A stretch of 36,205 nt of DNA. Origin: Patescibacteria group bacterium (GTDB taxonomy: Bacteria; Patescibacteriota; Patescibacteriia; UBA2591; UBA6264). The DNA lies in contig JAIPGN010000006.1 in the NCBI GenBank assembly GCA_021735685.1, positions 1 through 36,205 on the forward strand. Direction: 5' to 3'. Position numbers and translations under genes: made by a program. Shown in pieces: positions 1 to 16,525 of the stretch. The stretch's first letter is position 1. Each line of letters opens with the position of its first letter. The notes below the pieces were generated by a model. It saw only the letters and a program-made list of their open reading frames with translations. It was not told the DNA's origin and searched no databases.

Positions 1-471
1 GTTTTTGCTCAAAATCTAAAATCTCAAATAAAAGGACTGGAGGAAAAATTGGATACTTTGCTTGACGCTCATTTGGACGGCACAATTACAAAAGAAGAAT
101 ACACCGCCAAAAAACAAAAAATCCTCAACCAAAAGATTGGGATTTCTGAAAAATTGAAGGATTTTGAGCAAAACGGCAATCATTGGCTCGAACCTGCCAA
201 AAAATTCATTTTAGACAGTAAACAAGCCGAAATTATCGCTTTTCAGGAAAATCTTTTTGAGAAAAAAGATTTTCTAAAAAAGATTGGCTCGAACCGAATT
301 TTGCGGGAACGGGAATTGGTTTTTGAGCCACGCGGAGCGTGGCAAATCCTTTTAAAATCAGACCTTAGCACCCGCAGGGCGCGTGCCGAGGCGCTTTGCG
401 CCGAGGCAACAAACGCCGAACATACAATTTGGCTCCGGAGGTGGGATTCGAACCCACGACAAACTGGTTAA
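1..471 (+). CDS. C-terminal part of a probable large serine (site-specific) recombinase; 5' end outside the window
   Basis: The frame is open from base 1. The coiled-coil segment LDTLLDAHLDGTITKEEYTAKKQKI resembles C-termini of large serine recombinases. The ORF runs antisense into the tRNA-Asn 3' half (WLRRWDSNP). No catalytic domain is visible in the window. Confidence 0.6.
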   Translation, partial: VFAQNLKSQIKGLEEKLDTLLDAHLDGTITKEEYTAKKQKILNQKIGISEKLKDFEQNGNHWLEPAKKFILDSKQAEIIAFQENLFEKKDFLKKIGSNRILRERELVFEPRGAWQILLKSDLSTRRARAEALCAEATNAEHTIWLRRWDSNPRQTG

Positions 472-505
472 CAGCCAGTTGCTCTGACCCCTGAGCTACT
501 CCGGA
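430..505 (-). tRNA. tRNA-Asn (GTT), CCA encoded
   Basis: Minus strand reads TCCGGAG TA GCTCAGGGGTCAGAGC A ACTGG CTGTTAA CCAGT TTGTC GTGGG TTCGAAT CCCAC CTCCGGA GCCA, a complete 76-nt cloverleaf. Confidence 0.97.
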
Positions 506-513
506 TCATTAAT

Positions 514-777
514 TTAAGATTGATGATTTTTGATTGATGATTTATTTTTTATATATTCACGACCAGAACCTGATTTGAGATATTTTTCGCGTTCACGAGC
601 GATAATTCTATTTTCCAATTTTTCAAAATAAATCAATTTAAATGGACCTCTATTCTTTGTTGAAGGCGTAGAGGCAACACCATTATTGTGTTCTTTAACC
701 CTTCTTTCTATATTATTAGTCATCCCGACATAAAACTTACCGTCTTTCTCGCTTTTCAAAACATAGACGAAATACAT
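514..777 (-). CDS. Small GIY-YIG nuclease family protein
   Basis: YFVYVLKS...KFYVGMTNNIERRVKEHN...TKNRGPFKLIYFE...AREREKYLKSGSGR; 87 aa, YhbQ/UPF0213-like. Confidence 0.9.
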   Translation of the reverse strand: MYFVYVLKSEKDGKFYVGMTNNIERRVKEHNNGVASTPSTKNRGPFKLIYFEKLENRIIAREREKYLKSGSGREYIKNKSSIKNHQS

Positions 778-786
778 AGTTAATTA

Positions 787-894
787 TTAACAGCCAGTTG
801 CCCCTCCTTCAGCGAGTGAACTCGCTTACGGCGGGTAAATCTGACCCCTGTCCTCCTGTGAGGCGGATCAGCCTTTGGCTGAAGCTACTCCGAA
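787..894 (-). pseudogene. 5' half of tRNA-Asn (nt 1-38) interrupted by two hairpin insertions
   Basis: 787-801, 840-850 and 883-894 join to match 468-505 with one mismatch. Insertions lie at 802-839 (38 nt) and 851-882 (32 nt). Confidence 0.9.
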
Positions 895-897
895 ACA

Positions 898-953
898 GTA
901 ATTTATGATTTACGATTTAAGAATTATGATTGATTATTTTTAATTGACGATTT
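898..953. repeat. Degenerate heptamer tandem array (minus strand AAATCRT-like, 8 units)
   Basis: Minus strand: aaatcgt caattaa aaataat caatcat aattctt aaatcgt aaatcat aaattac. A 5-unit copy lies at 509-543. Confidence 0.8.
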
Positions 954-1283
954 GCGTGAAGAAACCATAATCGCCACAATCTCGTTAGTTTCTTTCAATA
1001 AAGCATTCAAAAAATCGCTTTTTATTATAGCATTCTTTTTAATAATTTCAAGCCAAAAGGCTGATTCATCAGCTTCTTCAATAACAACGCCAAGCTTTGA
1101 TATAAACTCCGCTTTTGATCGAGAACGACAAACGGCTCTATAGTTAGCTCCAACCGAAGTTCCGCTTCTAATTAATTGATTTCCTATCACTCGCCCCTCC
1201 ATTGTATTTGGCAACATTTTCACTAATTTAATTATACTCAAGGCATATTCTTTTGTTCTCTCCTTCAAAATTTCCGAGTTCAT
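924..1283 (-). CDS. Four helix bundle protein (23S rRNA intervening-sequence protein / bAvd-like family)
   Basis: QLIRSGTSVGANYRAVCRSRSKAEFISKLGVVIEEADESAFWLE is the family signature; 119 aa. Confidence 0.92.
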   Translation of the reverse strand: MNSEILKERTKEYALSIIKLVKMLPNTMEGRVIGNQLIRSGTSVGANYRAVCRSRSKAEFISKLGVVIEEADESAFWLEIIKKNAIIKSDFLNALLKETNEIVAIMVSSRKSSIKNNQS

Positions 1284-1320
1284 AATTAAATCTTAAATTT
1301 TAAATCTTAAATTTTAAATT
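1284..1320. repeat. Heptamer tandem array between the rpoD stop and the four helix bundle start
   Basis: + strand: aattaaa tcttaaa ttttaaa tcttaaa ttttaaa. Confidence 0.8.
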
Positions 1321-2620
1321 AATAATAGTCTTGAATCTTTTTAATGCCTTTTAATTGCCGTATTCTCTCCAACGCCCTGGCTTCAATCTGCCTAATCCTT
1401 TCCCTGGTTACTCCAAAAACCTGCCCCACCTCTTCTAAAGTGTGAGCCACTCCATCTGATAAACCAAACCTGATATCTAAAATTTTCTGCTCCCGCGGAG
1501 AAAGATCAACAATAATCTCCTTAATATATTTACGCAATAAAACTAAAGCTGCAGCTCGATCTGGGGCCATAGTCTTGATATCCTCAATGAAATCAACTAA
1601 TTCCGACTCTTTGCCGTCATCATCGCCTCCAATAGTAGTCTCTAAAGAAATAACATCTTGAGAAATTTTCATTAAATAACGAGCTTCACTGGTTTCAATC
1701 TCTAGCTCAGCAGCTATCTCTTCTGGCGTCGGCTTTCTTCCTAATTGTTGTAATAAATAGCGGTCAGCGCGATGAAATTTTCCTAAAATTTCAACTACAT
1801 GTACTGGGATTCGAACAGTTCGTGATTGGTCAGCCAAAGATCTAATAATGGCCTGCCGAATCCACCAAGTGGCATAAGTAGAAAATTTATAACCCCTTTT
1901 CCAATCATATTTTTCTACAGCACGAAATAAACCAATATTGCCTTCTTGAATTAAATCTAAAAAAGTTAAACCATAACCAGCAAACTTTTTGGCAATGCTA
2001 ACCACTAACCTCAAATTAGCTTCAATTAATTTTTGGGCCGCCTTTTTGTCCCCAGCATCTTTTTTTTGAGCCAATTCTACCTCTTCCTCAGAATCAATTA
2101 AAGGCACGTGACCAATTTCTTTAAGATACATTTGAATAGAGTCAGCCGAAAGCTTAGTGAGGTCAAAAAAGAGCTCTCCTTTCTTTTCTTTTTTTTCCGA
2201 AGAAAGGCTTAAAAGATCATTATCAGATTCCATCACTTGAATACCAGCTTTCTTTACCTCCTCTAGAAAGGCCTCGTAATCGGGCAAATATTTTTCTACT
2301 CGTGGAAAAGCATAAAGAATTTCATTTTGAGTGATAAATCCCCTTTGTTTTCCTTTAGCCATCAACTCTTGGGCTGCTTCTTGGGGCCACTGAAAACGAG
2401 AAGCTCTTTTCTTTTTTGGAGAAGTCTTTTTTGCTTTCTTTTTTTGAGGTTTCTTAATAACCTTCTTACTTGTTTTTTTGCTTTTTGAGCCAGCTTTCTT
2501 TTTTAAAGAAACACTAGCCTTGGTTTTCTTGCGAGAAGAAACCTTTCTAGCTTTTTTTCTCTTAGAAGAAGAGAACTTCTTATTTTTTTTACTCTTAGAA
2601 GAAGAGGTTTTCTTTTTCAT
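1319..2620 (-). CDS. rpoD: Primary RNA polymerase sigma-70 factor with a Lys/Ser-rich N-terminal extension
   Basis: Region 1.2 [49 protein letters not shown] and [20 protein letters not shown]; lies downstream of dnaG. Confidence 0.95.
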
Positions 2621-2624
2621 AATT

Positions 2625-4433
2625 TTAATCTGCTAAATCTTGAGATATTTTTGTTATCCTTTTACTAGCTTTTTCAATTAATTTTTTTTGACCAGCTTTC
2701 TCCGCTTCCCTTAATTCATTCATAGCTTCATCCATTCTTGCCCGCAAATATTTCTTTTTCAAAGCCAAGAAAAAGGAAGAAATGGCTTGGCTAATTTCAA
2801 TATCATTACTCTCGGTAAAATTCTTTTCGGCTAGAAATAATAAGAAATCATAATAATTCTCTAATTTGCGATCCTTTATCTTATTCTTGATCTTAAGTTG
2901 ATCAATTTTTTTATATTTTTGATAATAATCTCTAATCAATCCTGCTATTTTTTGAGATTCCAAAGAGGGAAAAATATCCAATAATAAATTTTGCTTTTTA
3001 AAAAATTCAGCTCCCAATTTAGGGTTTTTTAAAACTAAACCCAAAAATCCCTTAGCAGATTGCTCTTCCATAGACTCCTTTTCTTTTGTTGGCTTCTTGA
3101 CCTCTCGAGAATTAGAATAAGAATAAGGAGTTTTCATCTTTTGTAAAGCATCTCGCAAAAAAACCTCTGAGACTGACAATTCTTCGGCCAATTTCCTTAA
3201 CCATAAACCCTGTTCCACTGAATCTCCAAGCTTAGCAATAACTGGTAGAAGTTTTTTGGTAATTTCTTTTTTGTCTTCGATTTTTAATAATTGCTTGCCT
3301 TTACTTTGGTAGGGCTGGAAGGCTGAAGAAAAATAATATTCCATAATTGGCAAAGATTCGATCAAAGCCTTTTTCCACCCTTTGCCATCCTTTTGAATAA
3401 ATTCATCCGGATCCTTGTGCTTGCCTAAATTAACAATTTTAACATTTAATCCTTGGCCTAAAAGAACATCAATGCCTCTCTTAGTAGCGTTCTGGCCCGC
3501 CATATCCATATCAAAGGCCAAAAGGATATTAGGGGCATAACGTTTCAAAAGCTGAGCTTGTTCTGTGGTCAAAGCAGTTCCTGAAGAGCAAATCGTGTTT
3601 TTGTAACCAGCCTGATGACAAGCCAAAACATCCATATTGCCTTCAACTAAAATAAAATATTTTTTCTTTTTGGCTTCTAATTTAGCTTTATCCAAGCCAT
3701 AAAGAACCCGACTCTTGTTGTAAATCTCTGTTTCCGGAGTATTGATATATTTAGCTATTTCTCTTTCCTCTTTTTTCTTTTTGCTCGGCAAAACCCTACC
3801 AGTAAAACCAACCACCTGACCGTGAGCATCATTGATTGGAAACATAAGCCGACAACGAAAACGATCATAATAACCAGAACCCTTTTGTTTAGAAACCACT
3901 AATCCCGCCGCTTCTATTTCTGAGCCTTGATATTTTCTTTTGCTCAAAAACTTAAATAAAGTATCCCATTGGTCAGGAACAAAACCTAATTGAAATGCAG
4001 CAATAGTTTGAGAAGAAACTCCTCGTTTTTCTAAATATTTTCGTGCTTCTTCTGCGGAAGATGATTCTAGTAAAATCTTGTGATAAAATTTAGCGCTTAG
4101 TTCACAAATATCCAATAATTTTGTTCTCTGACTAGTATTATGAGAATCGTATTGCTTGATTTCCACCCCAGCTTTCTCAGCTAAAATTCTCAAAGCTTCG
4201 GGAAAATCAACTCCTTCAATTTTTTGAATAAAACTAAACATATCTCCTCCCTCCCCACAACCAAAGCAGTGATAAATTTGTCGGTCTGGAGAAACAAAAA
4301 AGGAGGGGGTCTTTTCTTGATGAAAAGGGCATAAGCCACGAAAATTACTCCCGCTTTGTTTTAATTGCACATACTCAGAAACAACATCCAAAATATCTAA
4401 TTTGGACTTTATCTCTTCAACGTGATCAGCCAT
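2625..4433 (-). CDS. dnaG: DNA primase
   Basis: CHC2 zinc finger [11 protein letters not shown]...[24 protein letters not shown], and TOPRIM motifs VEGNMDV and FDMDMAG. Confidence 0.97.
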
Positions 4434-4451
4434 AAAATATTAAATAAATAA

Positions 4452-5735
4452 TTATTCTTGATTGGGATTCATCACCCGACCTAAGAACAAAATATTACCT
4501 GAATCTTTTTGTTGAATCATGAAGATAAAAGGATGATCAGCTCGGAAAACTGGAATTTTTGAACCTGGTCCAGCGCTAAGCAATTCCATTACCACCGCAG
4601 TAGCGGCGGCGGCCTCTGTCCCCTCTTCATTGACATCAACAAAGGCCTGATGAATTACTTCACTGATGAACAAATCTTTTTCTCCAGTCATGCCAGAAAA
4701 ATCAGCTAAATTAGAAAAAGCAGAAGACATGCCCAAATCTGATAAATCTTTCTTCATAAAATATTTAGTCTCAAATTTAAACTTAGGTAAATAAACCTTC
4801 ACTCTCTGTTCTCTTAACTCTTCTTTCCATTCTTCTATTTTCTCTACGATCAAAGTGTCTCCTAAGGCGTCAATATCATTCCCTTGTGGCAAAAAAATCA
4901 ACATTGACAATTCTTCTCCCTGATAAGGTAATTCCAAAATTTGTAACTGCTCATTTTCGAGATAATTAAACTCGGCCTCTTCGTCTGTACGTTGCATCAT
5001 TTCTGCCCTAACAACTTCACTTTCAGAAACCTTGAAATCCCTTTCCGTAGTTTGATCTTGATCAAACTCTTGTAACCAATTTCCCTTAAAATAAATAGCG
5101 TTAGTTAAAATTAGCCTAGTTAAGGGATTAATAGCACCAGCAGGGATTAAATCTTTAATTTTATCCTCGGTTTGTTCCCCTACCCAATCGTTAATAGTAA
5201 GACGTGATTCCTCGGCATTATTCTTAAAATCAAGATTAGTTATCTCAGCACCATAATATCTGTTAACTAAATTAAAATACTCAGTCAAAAATTCAAAATC
5301 TTCTTCAGCCCACAAAGCATTAGCTACCCTTAACTGATAATCCTTATCTTCTTGATTAATCACCTGATTGAGACTCTGGTAACCGCTTCTTAAATATTCT
5401 TCGCTCTCCGGAAAATGAAAAACAGATCTCATTTCTTCGGCAGTTTCTCCCCGAGCTCCTTCGTAAGTCATGGCTAAGGCACTAGAAATGCTATAGGGAG
5501 AGAAAAATATATTACCCTCTTCCTGTGCTTGATACCTCTGATAAAGATCAAGAGCAAATTCATTGTTAGCGATCACCACTTCTATTAGAGCTTCTTCTTG
5601 ACTGGCTGTTCCTAATTCTTCCTCTGGAGGAACCAACTCCATTTCTTTGGGAACGCAAGCCGTTACAAAAATACCTAAAAAAGCAAACATTAATAACAAG
5701 CTTGTAGTTTTGAAAAAACTTTTCTTTTTAATCAT
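4452..5735 (-). CDS. Serpin (serine protease inhibitor), predicted lipoprotein
   Basis: NIFFSPYSISSAL, LTNAIYFKGNW, hinge EEGTEAAAAT and FRADHPF; signal peptide ends in the lipobox VTAC. Confidence 0.95.
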   Translation of the reverse strand: MIKKKSFFKTTSLLLMFAFLGIFVTACVPKEMELVPPEEELGTASQEEALIEVVIANNEFALDLYQRYQAQEEGNIFFSPYSISSALAMTYEGARGETAEEMRSVFHFPESEEYLRSGYQSLNQVINQEDKDYQLRVANALWAEEDFEFLTEYFNLVNRYYGAEITNLDFKNNAEESRLTINDWVGEQTEDKIKDLIPAGAINPLTRLILTNAIYFKGNWLQEFDQDQTTERDFKVSESEVVRAEMMQRTDEEAEFNYLENEQLQILELPYQGEELSMLIFLPQGNDIDALGDTLIVEKIEEWKEELREQRVKVYLPKFKFETKYFMKKDLSDLGMSSAFSNLADFSGMTGEKDLFISEVIHQAFVDVNEEGTEAAAATAVVMELLSAGPGSKIPVFRADHPFIFMIQQKDSGNILFLGRVMNPNQE

Positions 5736-5743
5736 GATAATAT

Positions 5744-6232
5744 TTAATTAATTTTATTTTTTAAAATTTTAATTGCTGGATACATCACAAAATGACATTT
5801 TTTCTGACCAATCTCTTCCAAGGGAACCCATTCTACTCTTTCCACTTCATTGGGCTCTAAAGAATTAATTACCTCTTTGTCCTGCTTTAAAGAAGTAAGG
5901 TTAGCTTCATAAATCAAATTAATGGAATGACAAAATTTTTGCATACAGTAAAAATTCGTTTCTCCCACATAAAATGGTTTTGTCCCTTTAATCTTAACAC
6001 GATAGCCGGTTTCTTCATAACATTCTCTAATAATTCCCTCTTCAACAGATTCATCTAAATTAATTTCTCCGCCCGGTAGAATCCAAATATCTTTATTGTA
6101 CTGAGGAACTACTAAAAGAATTTTTTTCTGTGGAGACCTGATTAAACCGTAAGCAGAAATCCTCCAAAAAACCTGATCTCCTTTTTTTCTTTTAATTAAT
6201 TGCTGATTAACGTCGAAAAAATCATTATTCAT
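5744..6232 (-). CDS. NUDIX hydrolase
   Basis: Nudix box GGEINLDESVEEGIIRECYEETG. The ATG at 6232 is preferred over the upstream alternative start at 6250. Confidence 0.88.
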   Translation of the reverse strand: MNNDFFDVNQQLIKRKKGDQVFWRISAYGLIRSPQKKILLVVPQYNKDIWILPGGEINLDESVEEGIIRECYEETGYRVKIKGTKPFYVGETNFYCMQKFCHSINLIYEANLTSLKQDKEVINSLEPNEVERVEWVPLEEIGQKKCHFVMYPAIKILKNKIN

Positions 6233-6267
6233 GGAAAAAATTATAAACAAACCCTTGGTAAAAATTC

Positions 6268-6359
<92 letters not shown>

Positions 6360-6368
6360 TTGATAAAC

Positions 6369-7235
6369 TTATTTTTGATAAAAATGTCTTCTTAATTGCC
6401 CGCAACCAGCTTTAATATCAGTTCCCTTGGAAATGAAACGGCAAGTTTCTATTTCGTGCGAATGTAAGATTTTCTCAAAAAGATCAAATTTACTTATTTT
6501 AGATGGCTCTAAACCACTACAATTACCATTAAGACTACTTAATTTAACAATAAAAGGATAGGGTTTTATTAATTTCGCCAGCTCAAGAGCGTTTTCCGAA
6601 GAATCGTTTAAATCTTTAATCAAAATATAATTAACTTTCATTGGGGCTTTCTTGATCTCAGCAAAACTCTTTAAAGCCTCTAACCCCAACTTAATCGGTT
6701 GAGCAGAAGGAAGTATTTTCTTTCGTAATTTATCATTAGGGGCGTGTAAAGAAAAATGCAACTTCAAAGCAAGGTTAATGTCTTCTTCAGATAACTTTTT
6801 CATTAAGTCTGGCCTAGTCCCCAAGGTGGAAATAGTTGCCCGAGAATTAGGAAAAATTTTAGCTAAATTTTTAATACTCTCTACCACATTCTCGTAATTC
6901 AAAAGAGGTTCTCCCATTCCCATATATGATAATAGAATTTTCTTACCTTTTAACCGACCTTCTTTTTTTAAAAAAGAGAAAACATTCTTGATCTGATCTT
7001 CTATTTCTTGGGCAGTTAAATTACGAAAAAAAGCTTGATCAGCTTGCAAAGAGTCAATTGACTCTGCAGTGACGCAAAAAATACAACCCATAGAACAACC
7101 AATCTGACAAGAAATGCAAATTATCTCTTCGTCTAAATCATAATAACCCGTTTCAATAATATGATTATCTTTGGTTTGTTGTAAAAACTTAATACTTTTC
7201 TGATCTTTTGATTCTAAAAATTTTAATAATTCCAT
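6369..7235 (-). CDS. RlmN/Cfr-like class A radical SAM RNA methyltransferase, short form
   Basis: ICISCQIGCSMGCIFC (CxxxCxxC plus the upstream conserved Cys), MGMGEPL, SLHAPND and DIKAGCGQL. Confidence 0.85.
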   Translation of the reverse strand: MELLKFLESKDQKSIKFLQQTKDNHIIETGYYDLDEEIICISCQIGCSMGCIFCVTAESIDSLQADQAFFRNLTAQEIEDQIKNVFSFLKKEGRLKGKKILLSYMGMGEPLLNYENVVESIKNLAKIFPNSRATISTLGTRPDLMKKLSEEDINLALKLHFSLHAPNDKLRKKILPSAQPIKLGLEALKSFAEIKKAPMKVNYILIKDLNDSSENALELAKLIKPYPFIVKLSSLNGNCSGLEPSKISKFDLFEKILHSHEIETCRFISKGTDIKAGCGQLRRHFYQK

Positions 7236-7272
7236 TTTTTGTCAAAAATTAAACTAAGAACATTAAATAAAT

Positions 7273-8172
7273 TTAAATTTTCATTCCTCGCAAAGCTCGA
7301 ATTCTCTCCCCAACTTCTGGATGAGTCATAAATAATTTAGCAAACCAATTTTTATTCTCTGGCCCCCGCAAAGGAGAATGAATAAAAAGATGGGCATTGG
7401 CTTTGGAGGCGGTTCGCAAAGGGGCTTGATCTTTTGATATTTTTTCCAAAGCTTGAGCTAATCCCTCTGGATATCTAGTTAAAAGCGCTCCGGAAGCGTC
7501 TGCCAAAAATTCTCTTTTGCGCGAAACCGCCATTCTGATTAAACTAGCCGCTAAAGGAGCTAAAATTGCAGCCAATAGCCCTAAAATTAAAATTAGAACC
7601 CCTAATTTTCCTTCATTCCGACGATTCCCGCCTCTTCTAAAAAAACTAATCCTTAAGAAAAAGTTAGAAAGCAAGGCAATGGTTCCCGCCAGAATAACAA
7701 TCATGGTTTGAAGGAGCATGTCTTTATTACCAATATGAGAAAGCTCATGAGCAATTACTCCCTCCAGCTCCACTCTTTCTAGCTTGTCTAGAAGTCCCTG
7801 CGTTACCGCCACTACCGCATGCTTAGCATTGCGGCCGGTGGCAAAAGCATTAGGTTGGCTTTCTGGTAAAATAAAAATTTTAGGAAGAGGTAAACCGGCA
7901 GTTAAGCAAAGATTTTCTACAATTCGATAAAGCTCTGGATGGTCTTTTTTTTCAATAGGATGAGCCTTAGTTGTTCTTAAAACAAGTTTATCTGAAAACC
8001 AATAACTAGAAAAACTCATCAAAACACTAAAAACTACAGCAATGACTAGAATTAAAGAGCTTTCTAAAATATAACTAAAGAGCCATCCTAAACCAATAAC
8101 TAATACCAAGAAAAAAGTAACCAAAAGCCAAGTTTTGCGAACATTAGAATCCGCTTGCTGATAAAGGGTCAT
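7273..8172 (-). CDS. htpX: Zinc metalloprotease HtpX (peptidase M48)
   Basis: PNAFATG, HELSH, SRKREFLAD and FMTHP motifs with transmembrane helices; follows lemA. Confidence 0.93.
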   Translation of the reverse strand: MTLYQQADSNVRKTWLLVTFFLVLVIGLGWLFSYILESSLILVIAVVFSVLMSFSSYWFSDKLVLRTTKAHPIEKKDHPELYRIVENLCLTAGLPLPKIFILPESQPNAFATGRNAKHAVVAVTQGLLDKLERVELEGVIAHELSHIGNKDMLLQTMIVILAGTIALLSNFFLRISFFRRGGNRRNEGKLGVLILILGLLAAILAPLAASLIRMAVSRKREFLADASGALLTRYPEGLAQALEKISKDQAPLRTASKANAHLFIHSPLRGPENKNWFAKLFMTHPEVGERIRALRGMKI

Positions 8173-8185
8173 TTTCTAAATTTAA

Positions 8186-8737
8186 TTAAAATTTAACTGC
8201 TGGCGCTTGTCGAGCTGCTTCATCTTTAAGCTCAAAAAGATTCCTTTTACTAAAATTAAAAATTTTGGCCACTAAGTTTGATGGAAAACTTTCAATCTTA
8301 ATATTCAAGTCACGAACATTAGAATTGTAAAAACGTCGCGCTGCTTGAATTTTATCTTCTGTATCTCTTAACTCTCTCTGTAGTTCTAAAAAATTCTGAG
8401 AAGCCTTCAGATCTGGATAATTTTCCGAAACCGCAAAAAGAGATTTCAGGGTTTCAGTTAATTCATTCTCTGCCTTAGTTTTTTCTTCAACGCTCTTTGC
8501 TCCCATAGCTCTTGTCCTTGCTTCTGTTACTTTCTCTAAAACTCCTTTTTCGTGCTGAGCATAACCCTTAACACTTTCAATTAAATTGGGGATTAAATCA
8601 TATCTCCTCTTTAATTGAACATCAATATCTGCCCAAGCTTCCTGAGTTCGATTCCTCTTCTTGATTAAACCATTGTAGATCGCTATTAGCCAAAGGAAAA
8701 TTAAAACCAATAAAGCAATTAGATAATAAATTGACAT
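8186..8737 (-). CDS. lemA: LemA family protein
   Basis: N-terminal TM helix, WADIDVQLKRRYDLIPNL, ENYPDLKASQNF and RRFYN. Confidence 0.95.
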   Translation of the reverse strand: MSIYYLIALLVLIFLWLIAIYNGLIKKRNRTQEAWADIDVQLKRRYDLIPNLIESVKGYAQHEKGVLEKVTEARTRAMGAKSVEEKTKAENELTETLKSLFAVSENYPDLKASQNFLELQRELRDTEDKIQAARRFYNSNVRDLNIKIESFPSNLVAKIFNFSKRNLFELKDEAARQAPAVKF

Positions 8738-8761
8738 AAAATTTAAATTAAAATTAGTTAT

Positions 8762-9466
8762 TTATTTTTTAAGATAAAATTTTCTTTTAACCGGATTAAA
8801 TTTTTCTATAGAATAACGCAACATGGTTCGTGGCATTTTCTGATAATGCTTTTGTAAGAATTTTTCTTCTTGAGCTTGATCCCTTTTACCCACCTCTCTA
8901 AGCATCCATCCTGTAGCCTTGTGAATTAAATCATGCTGATCATTTAAAAACAAGGTGGCTATTTTTAAAGTATCAGTAAATTGATTATTTTTAATAAAAG
9001 CGTATGTAGCCACAATAGCTATCCTTCTTGACCAAAGATGTCTAGAGCGAGCCAGTTGATAAAGTACTTTTTTATCTTTTTCCAACAAAAAATCACCAAC
9101 AATCTTAGAGGCAGACAAATCTACTAAATCCCAATTATTTATATATTCCACCTGCTTTAAATAAAAATAAAAAATTTCTTTTCTTTTTTTATCACCGGCT
9201 TTTTGATATTGATCAACTAAAATAAAAAGAGCAATTTGGCGATATTCGTGAAACCTGCTTTGGGTTAATTTCTCTAAATCAGTCAAAGACAAATCTCTAT
9301 ATTTTTTTCCTATTTTTCTCAACAAAGGTACTCTGGCTCCCAAAAAAATATCACCTTCTCCATATCCTCCTTTGTTTGTTTTAAAAAAAATCTGTAAAAT
9401 TTTCGCTTTCTGAGGATTGGCTATTTCTAGAATTTCTTTTTTGAGAGAAATTAAGTTATTATCCAT
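8762..9466 (-). CDS. DNA alkylation repair protein (AlkD-like)
   Basis: FFKT..GGYGEGDIFLG, NNWDLVD, DLIHKATGWMLREVGKR and MPRTMLRYSIE. Confidence 0.9.
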   Translation of the reverse strand: MDNNLISLKKEILEIANPQKAKILQIFFKTNKGGYGEGDIFLGARVPLLRKIGKKYRDLSLTDLEKLTQSRFHEYRQIALFILVDQYQKAGDKKRKEIFYFYLKQVEYINNWDLVDLSASKIVGDFLLEKDKKVLYQLARSRHLWSRRIAIVATYAFIKNNQFTDTLKIATLFLNDQHDLIHKATGWMLREVGKRDQAQEEKFLQKHYQKMPRTMLRYSIEKFNPVKRKFYLKK

Positions 9467-9557
9467 AAAAACTTGATAAAAATATCTTTTTGTCTTTCTT
9501 GGAAGTGATTATTTACAACAATCAAATATCATAAATGACTATCTTGATAGAAAAAAA

Positions 9558-9914
9558 CTACTCTTTTTCTTCATCTTCTTGGTCTTCTTCTGGAGCAGGA
9601 GTCATACTTTCAATTAGCTCTCTTAAAATCTTTTTATCTTCTGAACTAAGGTCTTCTTTCTTCAGGTAATCTCCTAAAAACTCTCTGCCAATTTCGTTCA
9701 TTACTTCTTCTTCTCTCCCTTTAGTAAGGCGAAACAATCTTTTTTCGTACTTCAGTCTTTGACGAAAATCATATTCCGGAACCTGAAGATGCTCTGGCAA
9801 AGAATCATTCAAAATTCTAATTTTCCCCTGCACACAAGAATCAATTTTATCTTTTAGAAAAACATCTTCCCTTTTTTCTTCAGAAAAATTATTTCCTTTT
9901 TTTTCAAAATTCAT
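9558..9914 (-). CDS. Hypothetical protein, highly charged
   Basis: 118-aa ORF with an ATG start, co-oriented with its neighbours; no recognisable motif. Confidence 0.6.
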   Translation of the reverse strand: MNFEKKGNNFSEEKREDVFLKDKIDSCVQGKIRILNDSLPEHLQVPEYDFRQRLKYEKRLFRLTKGREEEVMNEIGREFLGDYLKKEDLSSEDKKILRELIESMTPAPEEDQEDEEKE

Positions 9915-10000
9915 AATTAAAAAATATTAAACTAATTAAATCTAATAACTCCATAAAAATTTTACGAAGTCTCATAGAGGCCGGACCTCCATAAATCAAT

Positions 10001-10086
10001 TGGCGGAGAGGGCGGGATTCGAACCCGCAAGTCCTAAGGGACGCCAGTTCTCCAAACTGGTGGAATAACCGTTATCCGACCTCTCC
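10001..10086 (-). tRNA. tRNA-Ser (GGA), CCA encoded
   Basis: GGAGAGG acceptor, CCAGT TTGGAGA ACTGG anticodon arm, variable arm GTCCCTTAGGAC, GGTTCGAATCC and CCTCTCC GCCA; 86 nt. Confidence 0.95.
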
Positions 10087-10101
10087 ATTATTTTCAAAAT
10101 T

Positions 10102-11127
10102 TTATAATTTTTTCTTTAAATTTAAAAAATTTTTCAACCTTTTGGAATGATATGAGTTACTAAAGCCAATCTCTTGATAATATCGCAGAACTTCATGTTT
10201 CCTGTATAGACGAACGCTACTACCTCCCTGCTTTTTCGGAGAAAAATTATATATTTCTAATGTATTGTAAACAAAATCTAACAAGGGAATAGATTTATTG
10301 GTAAAAGCCAAACCAATATTATAATGATTATATCCATGACTATTGTGTCTGTGCCCGTAGACACAACCGTCAGTATCTATTAATCCCCGAAGGCAACTTT
10401 TAGAAAATTTTTTATTTTTTTTAATCCAGATAGGAACACCTACCTGATTTTTGACCTTATTCCCTTTTTTTAAGCCTCTTGCTAACAAAAAATCTACTAA
10501 GTTGCTGCTGGAAATTGTTATTCTAACCACTTTTTTACTTTTTGGTGATTGAAGACAATAAACAGCTGGAGTTAATTTGAATAAATTTTTAATCAAAGAA
10601 CAAATAAAACCAATATATTGACGACCATTTTCTTTATGCACGGTAACAACTACTTGATAATCGCTACCTATTCCTCCATCCCCTAAAATAATTCCTATGA
10701 ATTCTGCTAATTCTGTGCTATTACCAGGCCTAGATATATCCTTTTTTAAATTACATTTTCTGTAAAATTCAGGATATTTTTTTCTTCTCTGTTGAGAAAT
10801 CAATCCTCCCCTTACTCTCCCTTTTGGCGTCCCGGGGTTACCATGCCTTTCGACAACTTTTAGACCTCCTTTGCGTGCCGCCCTTGATGCGCTCCAAAAG
10901 TCTGGCAACATTTTATATTCAGGAATCTTAGTCTCTTTATTTTTCAACCCTAAACATATCCCAAATGCCCTATTAGACATTGTAAATTTTTCCCTGCGCC
11001 AATCAAACAACGTTCTTCTATGAATATTTAGTTCATTGGCTAATTGTGACCAGGTAAAGTTAGAGTGTCTGTAAACATTATTTAAAAATTTAGATTGACG
11101 CCCTTTTTTAAACTTAACTCTAGGCAT
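10102..11127 (-). CDS. Free-standing double-motif LAGLIDADG (DOD-type) endonuclease with an N-terminal HTH
   Basis: Motifs LAEFIGIILGDGG and CLRGLIDTDGC; HTH WSQLANELNIHRRTLFDWR. No intein splice termini are seen. The ATG at 11127 lies 8 nt after a TATAAT, suggesting a leaderless mRNA. Confidence 0.88.
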   Translation of the reverse strand: MPRVKFKKGRQSKFLNNVYRHSNFTWSQLANELNIHRRTLFDWRREKFTMSNRAFGICLGLKNKETKIPEYKMLPDFWSASRAARKGGLKVVERHGNPGTPKGRVRGGLISQQRRKKYPEFYRKCNLKKDISRPGNSTELAEFIGIILGDGGIGSDYQVVVTVHKENGRQYIGFICSLIKNLFKLTPAVYCLQSPKSKKVVRITISSSNLVDFLLARGLKKGNKVKNQVGVPIWIKKNKKFSKSCLRGLIDTDGCVYGHRHNSHGYNHYNIGLAFTNKSIPLLDFVYNTLEIYNFSPKKQGGSSVRLYRKHEVLRYYQEIGFSNSYHSKRLKNFLNLKKKL

Positions 11128-11176
11128 ATACACATATTATAATACAAACCTCTAGCTAAAATTTCTCTAATTTCTT

Positions 11177-11192
11177 ACTCAGCCACCTCTCC
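11177..11192 (-). pseudogene. Probable 16-nt 5' remnant of a tRNA-Ser
   Basis: Minus strand reads GGAGAGGTGGCTGAGT: the same acceptor strand as both tRNA-Ser genes here, followed by a canonical D-arm start. It is a GC-rich island in an AT-rich spacer. Confidence 0.6.
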
Positions 11193-11200
11193 TTTAAAAT

Positions 11201-11743
11201 TTAAAAACGATAAATATGAATTGGTTTTTCTCCTTTTCTATTAGGTTGATGTACTTTTTCTGGAGTTAATCCTTTAATGGGAAAGCCATAAGCAATCACT
11301 CGAGCGCCTTTTTTTAATTCTTTCTCTAATTTAAATCTTAATCTCTTTTCTAAAACCTTGGGCATACCATAAACATAAATAGCGTCTGCTTGAGATAAAT
11401 CTTCGAAAAATAAATTTTTCATTTTAAAAATTATCCCCTGACTTTCGCTGACAAAAAGTTTTTTTATCCAAGAGTAAAGAAAAAACAAAAAACTCATTTC
11501 AATGCCAATAGCTTTAACTGGAAAATGTTCTCCGGCGTAAAAAACAACCCGACCATCTCCTGAACCCAAGTCATAGAAAACTTCCCCCTCTTTTAATTGA
11601 ATAGCTTCAAAAATACGAGGTAGCTCTCTGCGAGAACAAGGAACAAAAGGAGCAAAAGATTTACTAGAGTTATGAAAAGTAATTCCGACCAACAAAAGAA
11701 AAATGGCTAAAACAGAATAAACAAAAAACGAAAAAGTTACCAT
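11201..11743 (-). CDS. Class I SAM-dependent methyltransferase with an N-terminal membrane anchor (FAM173-like)
   Basis: APFVP, motif I YDLGSGDGR and KLEKELKKGARVI. Confidence 0.85.
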   Translation of the reverse strand: MVTFSFFVYSVLAIFLLLVGITFHNSSKSFAPFVPCSRRELPRIFEAIQLKEGEVFYDLGSGDGRVVFYAGEHFPVKAIGIEMSFLFFLYSWIKKLFVSESQGIIFKMKNLFFEDLSQADAIYVYGMPKVLEKRLRFKLEKELKKGARVIAYGFPIKGLTPEKVHQPNRKGEKPIHIYRF

Positions 11744-11751
11744 AAAGAAAA

Positions 11752-14142
11752 TTATTTTTTCTTAAGATTAGCTATCCTCATCGTGGTTTCAATAATAGTG
11801 TCTGGAAGTAAAGAAATAGAATCAATCCCCTCTTTAACTAAAAATTCTGCAAAATCGGGAAAATCGCTCGGTCCCTGACCACAAATTCCCACCTTACAAT
11901 TATTTTGATGAGCAACTTTAATTAACTCTTGAATCAATTTCTTTACCGCTTCATTTCTCTCGTCAAAAAGATGAGCCACTAAACTGGAATCCCTGTCTAA
12001 ACCTAGAGTTAATTGCGTTAAATCATTAGAACCAATAGAAAATCCATCAAAAAGTTGAGCAAATTCCTTGGCTAAAACAATATTAGAAGGAATCTCAGCC
12101 ATAACATAAATTTGTAAAGGCTTTTGTTTTTGATATTTCTTTCTTAAACCACTTTCTTCAATAATTTTCAAGACTGAACGGGCCTCGCCAATAGTTCGAC
12201 AAAAAGGCACCATCACGATCACATTATCTAAACCAAATTCTTCTCTCACTTTCTTGATGGCTTCACATTCTAATTGAAAAGCTTTTTTAAATTTAGGATC
12301 ATTGTAACGACTCGCCCCTCGCCAACCAATCATCGGATTAGCTTCTTCGGGTTCATAAATAGAACCACCAACCAGATTAGCATATTCATTGCTTTTAAAA
12401 TCAGAAAAACGGACAATCACATCTTTAGGGTAAAAGGCAGCAGCAATTGTGCCAATTCCTTCAGCTAATTTATGAATATAAAAATCAACTTTGTTTTGAT
12501 ATCCTGCTGTAATTTCGTTAATTTTTTTCTTTATCTTTTGATCTTTAATTTTTTTAAAATTAATTAAGGCCAAAGGATGAATTTTGATATGATTATTGAT
12601 AATAAATTCTTCACGAGCTAAACCCACTCCATCATTAGGAAGAAAAGAAAGACCAAAAGCTTGACTCGGCTCCGCTAAATTAAGCATCACTTTGGTTTCA
12701 GGTTTTTTGAAATTCTTTAAACGAGTCTTCTTTACTTGAAAAGGAAGTAATCCCTGATAAACACGCCCCACTTCACCCTCAGCACAAGAGACTGTTACTT
12801 TTTGCCCACTTTTAATTTTCTGAGTAGCATCACCAGTTCCCACCACACAAGGAACTCCCATCTCTCTGCTAACAATTGCAGCGTGACAAACTCTTCCTCC
12901 ATCATCAGTAATAATTGCCGAAGCAATTTTCATAATCGGCACCCAGTCTGGATCAGTCATTTTGGTCACCAAAACTTGACCCGGTTTAAACTTAACAATA
13001 TCTTTAGCACTTTTGATAACATTAACTTCGCCTTGACCAATTTTTGAACCCACAGCCACACCGGTAATTAAAACCTTTTTTTCTTCCTTTTGAGGCTTAA
13101 AAACAAATCTTTCTAAAACATCTACCGATTTCAAAGACTGGACTGTTTCCGGTCGAGCCTGAAGAATATATAATTTTTTATCTTTTCCGTCTTTACCCCA
13201 CTCCATATCCATGGGTCGGCCGTAGTGTTTTTCAATTAAAACCGAATAACGAGCTAACTCTAGAACTTCCTGATCAGAAAGAGTAAACTTACTTCTTTCT
13301 TGAGGGGTGGTCTTAATATTTTTAACCGCAGTCTTGCCTTTCTCGCCATAAGTCATTCTCCACTCTTTTCCGCCCAGCCTCTTATTAACAATTGGTCGAT
13401 ACCCTTGGTCTAACAGTGGTTCAAAAACCATAAATTCATCCGGACTAACCTTGCCCTGAACTACATTTTCTCCCAACCCCCAAGAAGAATTAATTACAGT
13501 TACATCTGCAAATCCAGACTCAGTGTCACAAGAAAACATTACTCCGGAACAAGCCAAATCTGAACGAACCATTTTTTGAACTCCAATGGAAAGAGCCACT
13601 TCGCTATGTTTAAAACCTTTAGACTGGCGATAAACAATAGCTCGATTAGTAAAAAGAGAAGCCAGGCATTTATGAGCAGCTTTTAAAAGATTTTCTGGAC
13701 CCTGAACGTTAAGGTAAGTTTCCATTTGGCCAGCAAAACTAGCATCTGGCAAATCTTCGGCTGTAGCCGAGCTTCGTACAGCGACGTCCACTGCTTTAGT
13801 TTTGTATTCTTGGGATAATCTTTGGTAAGCTTTTTTTAATTCATCAGCAAGTTCTTGACTTAAGGGAGTTTTTAAAATTAACTTGCGAACTTTCTCGCCT
13901 CGCAAAGCTAATTCTTTAACATCTTGCACGTCTAACCCCTCTAAGATTTTTTCAATCTTTTCGCCCAAAGCATCTTGTTGCATAAATCGCCAATAAGCTT
14001 CAGCTGTAGTAGCAAAACCATTCGGAATTCGCACCCCTTGCTTGCCTAATTTTTGATACATTTCTCCCAAAGAAGCATTCTTGCCACCTACTTGAGGGAC
14101 ATTTTTTAGAGTTAATTCCCTAAACCAAAGTATTGTTTGCAT
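11752..14142 (-). CDS. ppsA: Phosphoenolpyruvate synthase
   Basis: VGGKNASLGEM, AVRSSATAEDLPDASFAGQ, phospho-His GGRVCHAAIVSRE and FSIGSNDLTQL. Confidence 0.97.
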   Translation of the reverse strand: MQTILWFRELTLKNVPQVGGKNASLGEMYQKLGKQGVRIPNGFATTAEAYWRFMQQDALGEKIEKILEGLDVQDVKELALRGEKVRKLILKTPLSQELADELKKAYQRLSQEYKTKAVDVAVRSSATAEDLPDASFAGQMETYLNVQGPENLLKAAHKCLASLFTNRAIVYRQSKGFKHSEVALSIGVQKMVRSDLACSGVMFSCDTESGFADVTVINSSWGLGENVVQGKVSPDEFMVFEPLLDQGYRPIVNKRLGGKEWRMTYGEKGKTAVKNIKTTPQERSKFTLSDQEVLELARYSVLIEKHYGRPMDMEWGKDGKDKKLYILQARPETVQSLKSVDVLERFVFKPQKEEKKVLITGVAVGSKIGQGEVNVIKSAKDIVKFKPGQVLVTKMTDPDWVPIMKIASAIITDDGGRVCHAAIVSREMGVPCVVGTGDATQKIKSGQKVTVSCAEGEVGRVYQGLLPFQVKKTRLKNFKKPETKVMLNLAEPSQAFGLSFLPNDGVGLAREEFIINNHIKIHPLALINFKKIKDQKIKKKINEITAGYQNKVDFYIHKLAEGIGTIAAAFYPKDVIVRFSDFKSNEYANLVGGSIYEPEEANPMIGWRGASRYNDPKFKKAFQLECEAIKKVREEFGLDNVIVMVPFCRTIGEARSVLKIIEESGLRKKYQKQKPLQIYVMAEIPSNIVLAKEFAQLFDGFSIGSNDLTQLTLGLDRDSSLVAHLFDERNEAVKKLIQELIKVAHQNNCKVGICGQGPSDFPDFAEFLVKEGIDSISLLPDTIIETTMRIANLKKK

Positions 14143-16419: not shown

Positions 16420-16525
16420 AATTAAATTACTTTACTTTTATATACAATAATATTTAATTTCTCTGCCTACCGGCAGACAGGAACGTTCTGCGAACAAGGT
16501 GAGCGGGTTGTTATAAATTTATTTT

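Follow-up and report, generated by a model that had tools for sequence, protein, structure and literature searches.

Putative integrase-free nuclease cassettes of two unrelated families on the 5' side of bacterial tRNA genes

A 36,205-nt stretch of a Patescibacteria genome (contig JAIPGN010000006.1 of assembly GCA_021735685.1; referred to as the window) carries two genes for unrelated nucleases, one of the GIY-YIG and one of the LAGLIDADG type, directly upstream of tRNA-Asn(GTT) and tRNA-Ser(GGA), respectively. At both loci the nuclease open reading frame (ORF) lies between a partial copy of a tRNA 5' end and the intact gene, and one complete tRNA copy always remains. Judging from the sequence comparisons, both loci are probably integrase-free selfish nuclease cassettes at the 5' side of single-copy essential tRNA genes, with the tRNA left intact. 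The sequences show directly how the loci are built, that whole clades of the nucleases are linked to tRNA genes, that orthologous sites are empty in relatives, that the catalytic residues are intact and that host DNA was duplicated in place; the mechanism, with every cleavage and copying step, we infer. Both families are apparently widespread, undescribed integrase-free cassettes, and they are a variant of known free-standing homing endonucleases and of Ssn-type nuclease-hairpin pairs.

ARAGORN identified three tRNA genes in the window, all on the minus strand (Table 1). Each is preceded by a co-oriented ORF, at a distance of 8 nt (tRNA-Asn), 9 nt (tRNA-Ser(TGA)) and 15 nt (tRNA-Ser(GGA)). Since the ORF before tRNA-Ser(TGA) (6369-7235, 288 aa) encodes a radical SAM protein according to Pfam and not a nuclease, a nuclease gene precedes two of the three tRNA genes. 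This confirms the preliminary description, made from the sequence alone, in which two of the three tRNA genes had a co-oriented nuclease ending 8-15 nt upstream. The 87-aa ORF before tRNA-Asn matched the GIY-YIG domain with 61.3 bits (cut-off 22.6). Residues Y5, Y16, G18, R26, H30 and E64 are present in this ORF and conserved in 99-100% of 89 homologues; following published work on I-TevI and UvrC, we take the Tyr, Tyr, Arg, His and Glu of this set to be catalytic. The best PDB sequence matches of the protein were the UPF0213 entries 1zg2 (4e-8) and 1ywl (2e-7), followed by Slx1.

The copy of tRNA-Asn upstream of the GIY-YIG ORF contains three exact blocks, corresponding to tRNA positions 3-12 (10 nt, at 883-892), 13-23 (11 nt, at 840-850) and 24-38 (15 nt, at 787-801); position 1 is identical and position 2 differs. 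GC-rich hairpin inserts of 32 nt (851-882) and 38 nt (802-839) split the copy, and the 126-nt fragment region had a fold z of -3.07. Hairpins related to these occupy the same tRNA position in two of the loci described below (L122 and L123). The copy ends 9 nt before the ORF start. Over ~45 nt, the sequences preceding the fragment and the intact tRNA-Asn share 78% identity, and the upstream neighbour, a four-helix-bundle gene, has a translated C-terminal tail (KSSIKNNQS) nearly the same as that of the GIY-YIG ORF (KSSIKNHQS). The final ~9-10 GIY-YIG codons (KSSIKNHQS and the stop) are thus duplicated host DNA. The D-loop of the fragment is the lineage-specific D-loop of the window's tRNA-Asn, from which that of the nearest relative differs. 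Because flank, ORF tail and D-loop are common to both copies, the 5' piece is the product of an in-place duplication and was not imported. As read from the sequence, the GIY-YIG ORF (~235 nt) came with a duplication, in place, of ~95 nt of host DNA, which runs from the end of the four-helix-bundle gene through the spacer to tRNA position 38. Since this insertion copied the end of the four-helix-bundle gene, that gene, a separate small cassette, must have been present earlier.

We compared the region downstream of rpoD with that of 29 other genomes of the class, among which the nearest relative is the only one of the same order; all presence/absence comparisons are at class level and none is within a species. 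A co-oriented tRNA-Asn gene was found at most 1.5 kb after rpoD in 14 of the 29 genomes. In 12 of these 14 it starts 11-237 nt after rpoD (11 nt in the nearest relative) with no GIY-YIG gene upstream. Locus L123 is a filled site, with a GIY-YIG gene and a decayed fragment bearing a TCCGCC-type hairpin, and in L119 a GIY-YIG gene lies downstream of tRNA-Asn. Among the 12, L122 and L125 lack an ORF but contain several pieces of tRNA-Asn together with hairpins. The tally for the rpoD-tRNA-Asn site is therefore 12 without an upstream GIY-YIG gene and two filled (the window and L123). We also inspected housekeeping-anchored loci, comprising 27 tRNAs with at least 200 nt of upstream sequence. An upstream 5' block was present in eight of the 27, of which two are paralogues, one is a chance match and five are real (L118, L122, L123, L126 and L163). 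One of the two paralogue cases, L125, holds the fragment pieces with hairpins mentioned above and is counted as a fifth ORF-less unit.

The wider distribution of the GIY-YIG family (median length 85 aa) was surveyed with one genome per species, giving 80 loci with 86 near-full-length matches in Patescibacteria, Bacteroidota, Ignavibacteriota, Planctomycetota, Omnitrophota and others. A co-oriented tRNA gene lies directly downstream of 39 of the 86 matches, and for five the contig end is too close to tell. A first pass had yielded 38 matches followed by a co-oriented tRNA (29 of them tRNA-Leu), the start of which is at -4 to +92 nt relative to the end of the match. Exact blocks of the tRNA 5' half were found at most 350 nt upstream in 36 of these 38, and blocks of the 3' half in 10. 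In a set of 30 loci, the 8 nt that precede the fragment agreed with those that precede the intact tRNA at 4.2 positions, compared to an average of 2.6 for shuffled pairs (maximum 3.4 in 2000 shuffles), a comparison that includes two tandem cases, which are trivially identical. This agreement indicates that the duplication usually reaches a few nucleotides past the tRNA start, pointing to target duplication. Three loci contain tandem units (L019, L020 and L059), and in two (L025 and L026) nothing but the first codons of the ORF is left; both observations would be expected if the elements multiply and decay.

These data bear out the initial view that the 5' end of the tRNA is left behind, not the 3' end, and that the cassettes are integrase-free; a scan of 15 ORFs in 1-14142 revealed no integrase-like domain. 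The proposal of a general class of tRNA-targeting cassettes holds for both families (39 of 86 GIY-YIG matches; 23 of 27 and 73 of 80 LAGLIDADG loci, see below) and is in line with the empty orthologous sites, but its confinement to one lineage does not hold, as the GIY-YIG type also occurs in Bacteroidota, Ignavibacteriota, Planctomycetota and others. Nor is the 5' piece the simple leftover that had been assumed, because the GIY-YIG pieces almost always include a palindrome that is conserved, or a hairpin related to it.

Integrase-driven islands are known to land at tRNA genes, and partial duplication of a tRNA is a hallmark of integration. The tRNA copies might on these grounds be att-like repeats left as scars of such islands or, alternatively, the exon remains of former tRNA introns; many intron-encoded LAGLIDADG genes are reported from rRNA genes of Candidate Phyla Radiation (CPR) bacteria in the accessible part of one study (PMC11270868). 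Like the islands of tyrosine integrases, the cassettes use a tRNA as landing site and keep the gene intact via partial duplication. In the islands, however, an integrase is present and it is the 3' part of the tRNA that is duplicated, whereas here it is the 5' part, the insert is only 0.3-1.1 kb and the 15 scanned ORFs contain no integrase domain. An Rfam search of 1-12500 at E values up to 1 detected no intron or other RNA family, and none for either fragment region. At tRNA-Asn there is also no room for a ribozyme, since only 9 nt separate fragment and ORF and 8 nt the stop codon and the tRNA. We consider an origin from islands or introns highly improbable.

The insert that splits the fragment is the same 20-nt palindrome, CCTGCCTGCCGGCAGGCAGG, or a near variant of it in most GIY-YIG loci. 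This perfect palindrome (allowing up to 3 mismatches) was found at most 250 nt upstream of 30 of the 39 tRNA-adjacent matches, with hairpins on the upstream side only, and was absent from the remaining 362,220 nt of those loci. It is conserved across phyla, while the proteins are down to ~50-60% identity, and its flanks are not conserved between loci. Thirty insertion points could be mapped: 18 in the D-loop, six at the loop edge and six in stems. Note that these points are not independent, because many represent the same tRNA-Leu position. The palindrome lies centrally in the fragment, in a biased test, as detection required at least 8 nt on each side. Literature searches found no paper on the palindrome sequence. 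As a separate observation, L122 contains, ~380-460 nt after rpoD and downstream of the intact gene, a tRNA-Asn 3' half with the canonical palindrome in its T-arm. Based on this 3' half, spare 3' copies of tRNAs also receive the hairpin.

The genome from which the window derives (611 kb, 7 contigs, 44 tRNA genes) has one gene each for tRNA-Asn, tRNA-Ser(GGA) and tRNA-Phe. It contains three GIY-YIG matches, two of which abut a tRNA. The second tRNA-abutting cassette, on contig C3, consists of tRNA-Phe positions 1-20, two tandem copies of the palindrome, positions 21-39/40, a GIY-YIG ORF of 86 aa and the intact tRNA-Phe, into which the ORF extends by 29 nt. Units without an ORF, composed of a 5' fragment, a short spacer and the intact tRNA, precede tRNA-Thr(GGT), tRNA-Ile(TAT), tRNA-Ile(GAT) and tRNA-Val(GAC); their fragments carry the palindrome or nested hairpins, except for that of tRNA-Val(GAC), which has no hairpin. 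A scan of all 44 tRNA genes for exact 5'-half blocks of at least 10 nt returned six upstream, one downstream and none on the opposite strand; one of the six upstream cases and the sole downstream case are the same neighbouring pair of tRNA-Leu paralogues. With a cassette or scar at 7 of the 44 tRNA genes, these elements visibly shape the tRNA loci of reduced genomes.

Away from nuclease genes, the palindrome occurs at ~10 sites of this genome and at 42 sites of viral contigs. The viral sites are exact copies in 35 stretches (L252-L286), many of them within runs of short tandem repeats, and in L276 and probably L253 the palindrome lies inside a tRNA-Met-like gene. We considered viral contigs as carriers of the cassettes and rejected this idea, as a GIY-YIG gene is at most 500 nt from only one of the 42 sites (a cassette in L283). 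In the window itself, an intergenic spacer contains a variant of the palindrome with 3 mismatches (16462-16481), the flanks of which (~20 nt on the left, ~40 nt on the right) recur around a double palindrome at C3:149286-149325. By their sequence these two sites look like members of a second small hairpin-carrying repeat family. A further variant is found among three repeats at C2:85100-85400, and the starts of these repeats resemble the start of the NTS motif of Neisseria.

A maximum-likelihood tree resolved two supported clades of GIY-YIG proteins (96/89). Clade 1 (33 rows, 24 without a tRNA) includes the third GIY-YIG copy of this genome, and clade 2 (52 rows, nearly all tRNA-linked) includes the window gene and the tRNA-Phe-linked gene. 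Within clade 2, members from Bacteroidota, Ignavibacteriota, Patescibacteria and Omnitrophota are mixed in a subclade of 43 rows that is mostly linked to tRNA-Leu. Residence beside tRNA genes is thus inherited within one nuclease lineage, across the boundaries of phyla. The hairpin type tracks the tree loosely, with CCTGCC in the Leu-rich subclade and TCCGCC and CCCGCC in the window, L059, L014 and L078.

The tree also bears on the question whether the nuclease has anything to do with the duplications. Another process, such as a mobile palindrome with an unlinked enzyme or replication slippage, could make the duplications and hairpins, and nuclease ORFs could settle secondarily in this dispensable, well-transcribed DNA. 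The frequency of ORF-less units, four in the window's own genome and others in L118, L122, L125, L126 and L163, would fit such a process, as would the near absence of GIY-YIG genes from the viral palindrome sites. However, tRNA lodging and palindrome follow one clade of the nuclease tree across phyla, and no palindrome occurs in the 362 kb of those loci that lie beyond the cassettes. Moreover, units lacking an ORF can arise by ORF deletion, because L025 and L026 keep the first codons only. Secondary settlement of the nuclease genes thus appears quite unlikely to us.

The combination of a small nuclease and a hairpin has a precedent. Ssn nucleases, exemplified by SsnA of Neisseria meningitidis, cut only single-stranded DNA, according to the accessible part of their description, in which an insertion-sequence-like layout is also remarked upon (Chenal et al. 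2025, PMC11893778). They resemble the present family as single-domain GIY-YIG proteins of ~90 aa whose gene is accompanied by a GC-rich hairpin repeat that is also scattered elsewhere in the genome. In contrast to the perfect 20-nt palindrome with its variable surroundings, the NTS is oriented and has non-palindromic flanks. Here the hairpin is located inside a duplicated tRNA 5' part, occurs upstream only (30 of 39) and is not the NTS motif; the main text of the Ssn paper (PMC11893778) contains no mention of tRNA.

Given this likeness, the GIY-YIG gene could be a domesticated host function of the Ssn type that modulates recombination, foreign DNA uptake or processing near tRNAs, with its position at tRNA genes reflecting the use of a strong promoter. 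In the sections of the Ssn paper available, SsnA is a single-domain GIY-YIG protein of 94 aa; it binds the hairpin repeats that flank its gene and restricts transformation (PMC11893778). The strong conservation of the catalytic residues and the palindromes away from nuclease genes would be compatible with a host function. On the other hand, the distribution is patchy, with empty orthologous sites, and the tandem copies and ORF-less relics resemble the gain, decay and loss of a selfish element. The hairpin copies in this genome are also few, compared to hundreds of NTS in Neisseria, as given in the same partial source (PMC11893778). Domestication is in our view unlikely.

Other known systems share single features with the cassettes. 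SegB of phage T4 is a free-standing GIY-YIG homing endonuclease in a tRNA gene cluster and is inherited preferentially with the flanking tRNA DNA, as far as the accessible portion of that report goes (PMC2330249). It differs as a site-specific endonuclease of a phage from the bare catalytic domain found here in bacterial chromosomes together with a partial tRNA duplication and a palindrome. Homing genes of this kind are present or absent at orthologous sites, as observed here, and have a separate DNA-binding domain, which the GIY-YIG ORF lacks. In REP/REPIN-RAYT systems, too, copies of a short GC-rich palindrome are scattered over the genome and associated with a single small nuclease-type gene, but this gene encodes an HUH/Y1 transposase instead of a GIY-YIG protein, and the repeat here has a low copy number and a strong preference for spare tRNA copies. 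A parallel is provided by free-standing endonuclease genes that duplicate part of a mitochondrial protein gene. Literature searches joining the names of the nucleases with tRNA terms returned no description of these cassettes, and the accessible part of the paper on rRNA insertions in CPR bacteria (PMC11270868) does not mention tRNA.

For the selfish GIY-YIG cassette we propose the following course of events. The ORF would enter the rpoD-tRNA-Asn spacer together with the ~95-nt in-place duplication, and the spare tRNA-Asn copy would then gain GC-rich hairpins related to the 20-nt palindrome of the clade. By analogy with the Ssn enzymes, the 87-aa nuclease may recognise these hairpins in single-stranded DNA, and its cuts would spread the hairpin and copy the cassette into tRNA genes, with long target duplications. 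A hairpin in the spare copy might also break up the direct repeat that could otherwise delete the cassette. In a more far-reaching version, the palindrome would be a free-moving piece of DNA, moved in trans by the GIY-YIG nuclease via single strands into loops of folded DNA (cloverleaves of tRNA genes and other hairpins, for example) without target duplication, while the nuclease gene would enter tRNA genes with variable duplications of 30-100 nt. Such an undescribed form of transposition, with the LAGLIDADG cassettes convergent on the same niche, is a tentative idea that we rate as doubtful; if true, the 20-nt palindrome would be among the smallest known mobile DNA pieces.

We next turn to the LAGLIDADG gene, which is free-standing between a methyltransferase-like gene and tRNA-Ser(GGA) and not in an intron or intein. 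Its match to LAGLIDADG_3 (PF14528) has an E value of 1.7e-5 (25.4 bits, cut-off 22.5), and an N-terminal region of ~130 aa is helix-turn-helix (HTH)-like, with weak matches (E 0.008). The two LAGLIDADG motifs (G151-D152-G153 and D253-T254-D255-G256) are invariant in 14 aligned sequences. The family profile matched PDB 2dch, a 'putative homing endonuclease' of an archaeal rRNA intron, with an E value of 5.2e-11 over residues 141-327, which cover both LAGLIDADG domains. A chain with two motifs and conserved acidic residues is common to both types; the gene here differs in being free-standing before tRNA-Ser, tRNA-Tyr or tRNA-Gln and in its additional N-terminus.

LAGLIDADG matches were present in 28 of 401 Patescibacteria genomes, patchily and in many families. 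A co-oriented tRNA is located at the ORF end in 23 of 27 loci with a tblastn match (17 Ser, four Gln and two Tyr). Among metagenome loci, 73 of 80 abut a co-oriented tRNA (71 Ser and two Arg), at -52 to +37 nt from the ORF end, and five of the seven others end too soon to tell. When the comparison was anchored on the pyruvate phosphate dikinase (PPDK) gene, tRNA-Ser(GGA) was found downstream in eight of 29 relatives and the endonuclease in none of the 29, so that only the window is filled. Four weaker LAGLIDADG relatives (L105, L106, L108 and L111) instead start ~7 nt after tRNA-Leu(CAA) or overlap this gene, an arrangement that is the mirror image of that at tRNA-Ser.

The tRNA-Ser-like fragment in the window matches the adjacent tRNA exactly in its first 8 nt only, and its D-arm differs from that of the intact tRNA. 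By manual count, it is identical at 14 of 16 and 15 of 16 positions to the 5' ends of the genome's tRNA-Ser(CGA) and tRNA-Ser(GCT), respectively. Similar fragments are present in L092, L093, L097, L172 and L173, and those of L092 and L093 also end after position 16. Overall, 15 of 74 loci have a tRNA-Ser-like 5' piece no more than 120 nt upstream of the ORF, compared to 5 of 444 control windows, some of which hold real antisense tRNAs. In many cases the piece is at -52 to -55 and terminates in GGTTGA with C as the next nucleotide, a sequence resembling a -35 box. No palindrome was found at the LAGLIDADG cassette. The claim that the same architecture occurs twice needs a correction: since the GIY-YIG cassette involves an in-place duplication of host DNA, whereas the LAGLIDADG cassette has no palindrome and a fragment with a differing D-arm, the two are best described from their sequences as analogous and not the same.

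Classical homing may explain the LAGLIDADG cassette. The enzyme would cut a tRNA-Ser gene that lacks the cassette, within the DNA of its D-arm, and repair would copy the ORF together with a tRNA of deviant D-arm, while the first 16-22 nt of the old gene would stay upstream. Portable homology could come from the short 5' piece and from the tRNA's conserved 3' half, and the deviant D-arm would protect the cassette-bearing allele. In tRNA-Ser(GGA), Rfam flags two non-canonical D-stem pairs. Within a comparison set of 99 tRNA-Ser genes (87 of them LAGLIDADG-adjacent), the body of this tRNA is 78-82% identical to LAGLIDADG-adjacent tRNA-Ser(TGA) genes and 68% to the ortholog of the nearest relative. 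As to its individual parts, the D-arm, anticodon stem and variable-arm layout are closest to those of LAGLIDADG-adjacent tRNA-Ser(TGA) genes on unrelated contigs, and the anticodon loop matches that of the nearest relative's tRNA-Ser(GGA). The gene could be the result of an anticodon switch or a chimera.

Several results weigh against the interpretation as selfish nuclease cassettes at the 5' side of tRNA genes. In the GIY-YIG survey, 18 of the 86 matches have a co-oriented tRNA at most 300 nt upstream instead, and 24 have no tRNA nearby. The housekeeping-anchored loci contain five ORF-less units and one GIY-YIG-bearing unit (L123); because the ORF-less units outnumber those with an ORF, the nuclease gene may be unneeded for making units. 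The palindrome is inside the cassette and not at the empty sites, the reverse of a classical homing target, and the window's own hairpins are variants of it, not the canonical form. Pfam detected no second domain in the 87-aa ORF and hence no DNA-binding domain. The preliminary description had noted a 5' fragment of the same tRNA type at both loci, which stands for tRNA-Asn, with its three exact blocks. For tRNA-Ser, the 16-nt fragment reached 11.5 with a tRNA-Ser 5' matrix, whereas the controls had their 99th percentile at 14.5; taken alone it is not beyond chance, and it is credible only because the same feature recurs in homologous loci. Finally, the closest LAGLIDADG proteins, L172 (54%) and L173 (52%), are paired with tRNA-Ser genes of a different D-arm. 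Joint travel of the tRNA with the LAGLIDADG ORF was considered and found no support, as the closest proteins carry other tRNA bodies.

A niche at the 5' side of bacterial tRNA genes, occupied by two unrelated nuclease families and with no integrase, had no account in the literature searched. If the GIY-YIG enzyme reads the hairpin, a compact site-specific nuclease of ~85 aa would be of practical interest, like the Ssn enzymes. The preferred targets of both families are tRNA-Leu and tRNA-Ser. The synthetases for Leu and Ser do not read the anticodon, which suggests, together with this preference, that cassettes may hop between isoacceptor genes.

Table 1. Features of the two cassettes, the remaining tRNA gene of the window and the ORF-less fragments elsewhere in the genome (C3 and C6).
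Feature	Coordinates	Strand	Evidence	Remarks
tRNA-Asn(GTT)	430..505	minus	ARAGORN; Rfam RF00005, 72.3 bits	sole Asn tRNA gene of the genome
GIY-YIG nuclease gene, 87 aa, single-domain	514..777	minus	PF01541, E 1.1e-16	
Split copy of tRNA-Asn positions 1-38	787..894	minus		blocks 883-894, 840-850, 787-801
Upstream flank	895..950	minus	repeat search, 60 nt, 78%	copy at 506-560, within 3' end of GIY-YIG ORF
Four-helix-bundle ('23S rRNA IVP') gene	924..1283	minus	PF05635, 6.2e-15; TIGR02436, 6.1e-24	
tRNA-Ser(TGA)	6270..6359	minus	ARAGORN; Rfam, 55.2 bits	
tRNA-Ser(GGA)	10001..10086	minus	ARAGORN; Rfam, 54.3 bits	sole GGA isoacceptor; unusual D-arm
Free-standing LAGLIDADG gene, 343 aa	10102..11133	minus	PF14528, PF00961	GTG at 11133; ATG at 11127
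tRNA-Ser-like 5' fragment, 16 nt	11177..11192	minus		acceptor strand and D-arm start; stops before D-loop GG
ORF-less fragment, tRNA-Ile(TAT)	C6:8152-8228			
ORF-less fragment, tRNA-Thr(GGT)	C6:22372-22470			
ORF-less fragment, tRNA-Val(GAC)	C3:19018-19100			
ORF-less fragment, tRNA-Ile(GAT)	C3:20763-20880			

The four-helix-bundle gene sits between rpoD and the tRNA-Asn cassette and is missing from this site in the relatives; AT-rich repeats of ~7 nt follow it (flanks 895-960). Housekeeping neighbours in the window include dnaG, rpoD, a serpin, a NUDIX protein, an M48 peptidase and LemA, as well as a DNA alkylation repair protein, the methyltransferase-like protein and PPDK. The serpin gene (4452-5735, minus strand; PF00079, E 1.7e-128) is full-length, in a Patescibacteria genome of 611 kb.

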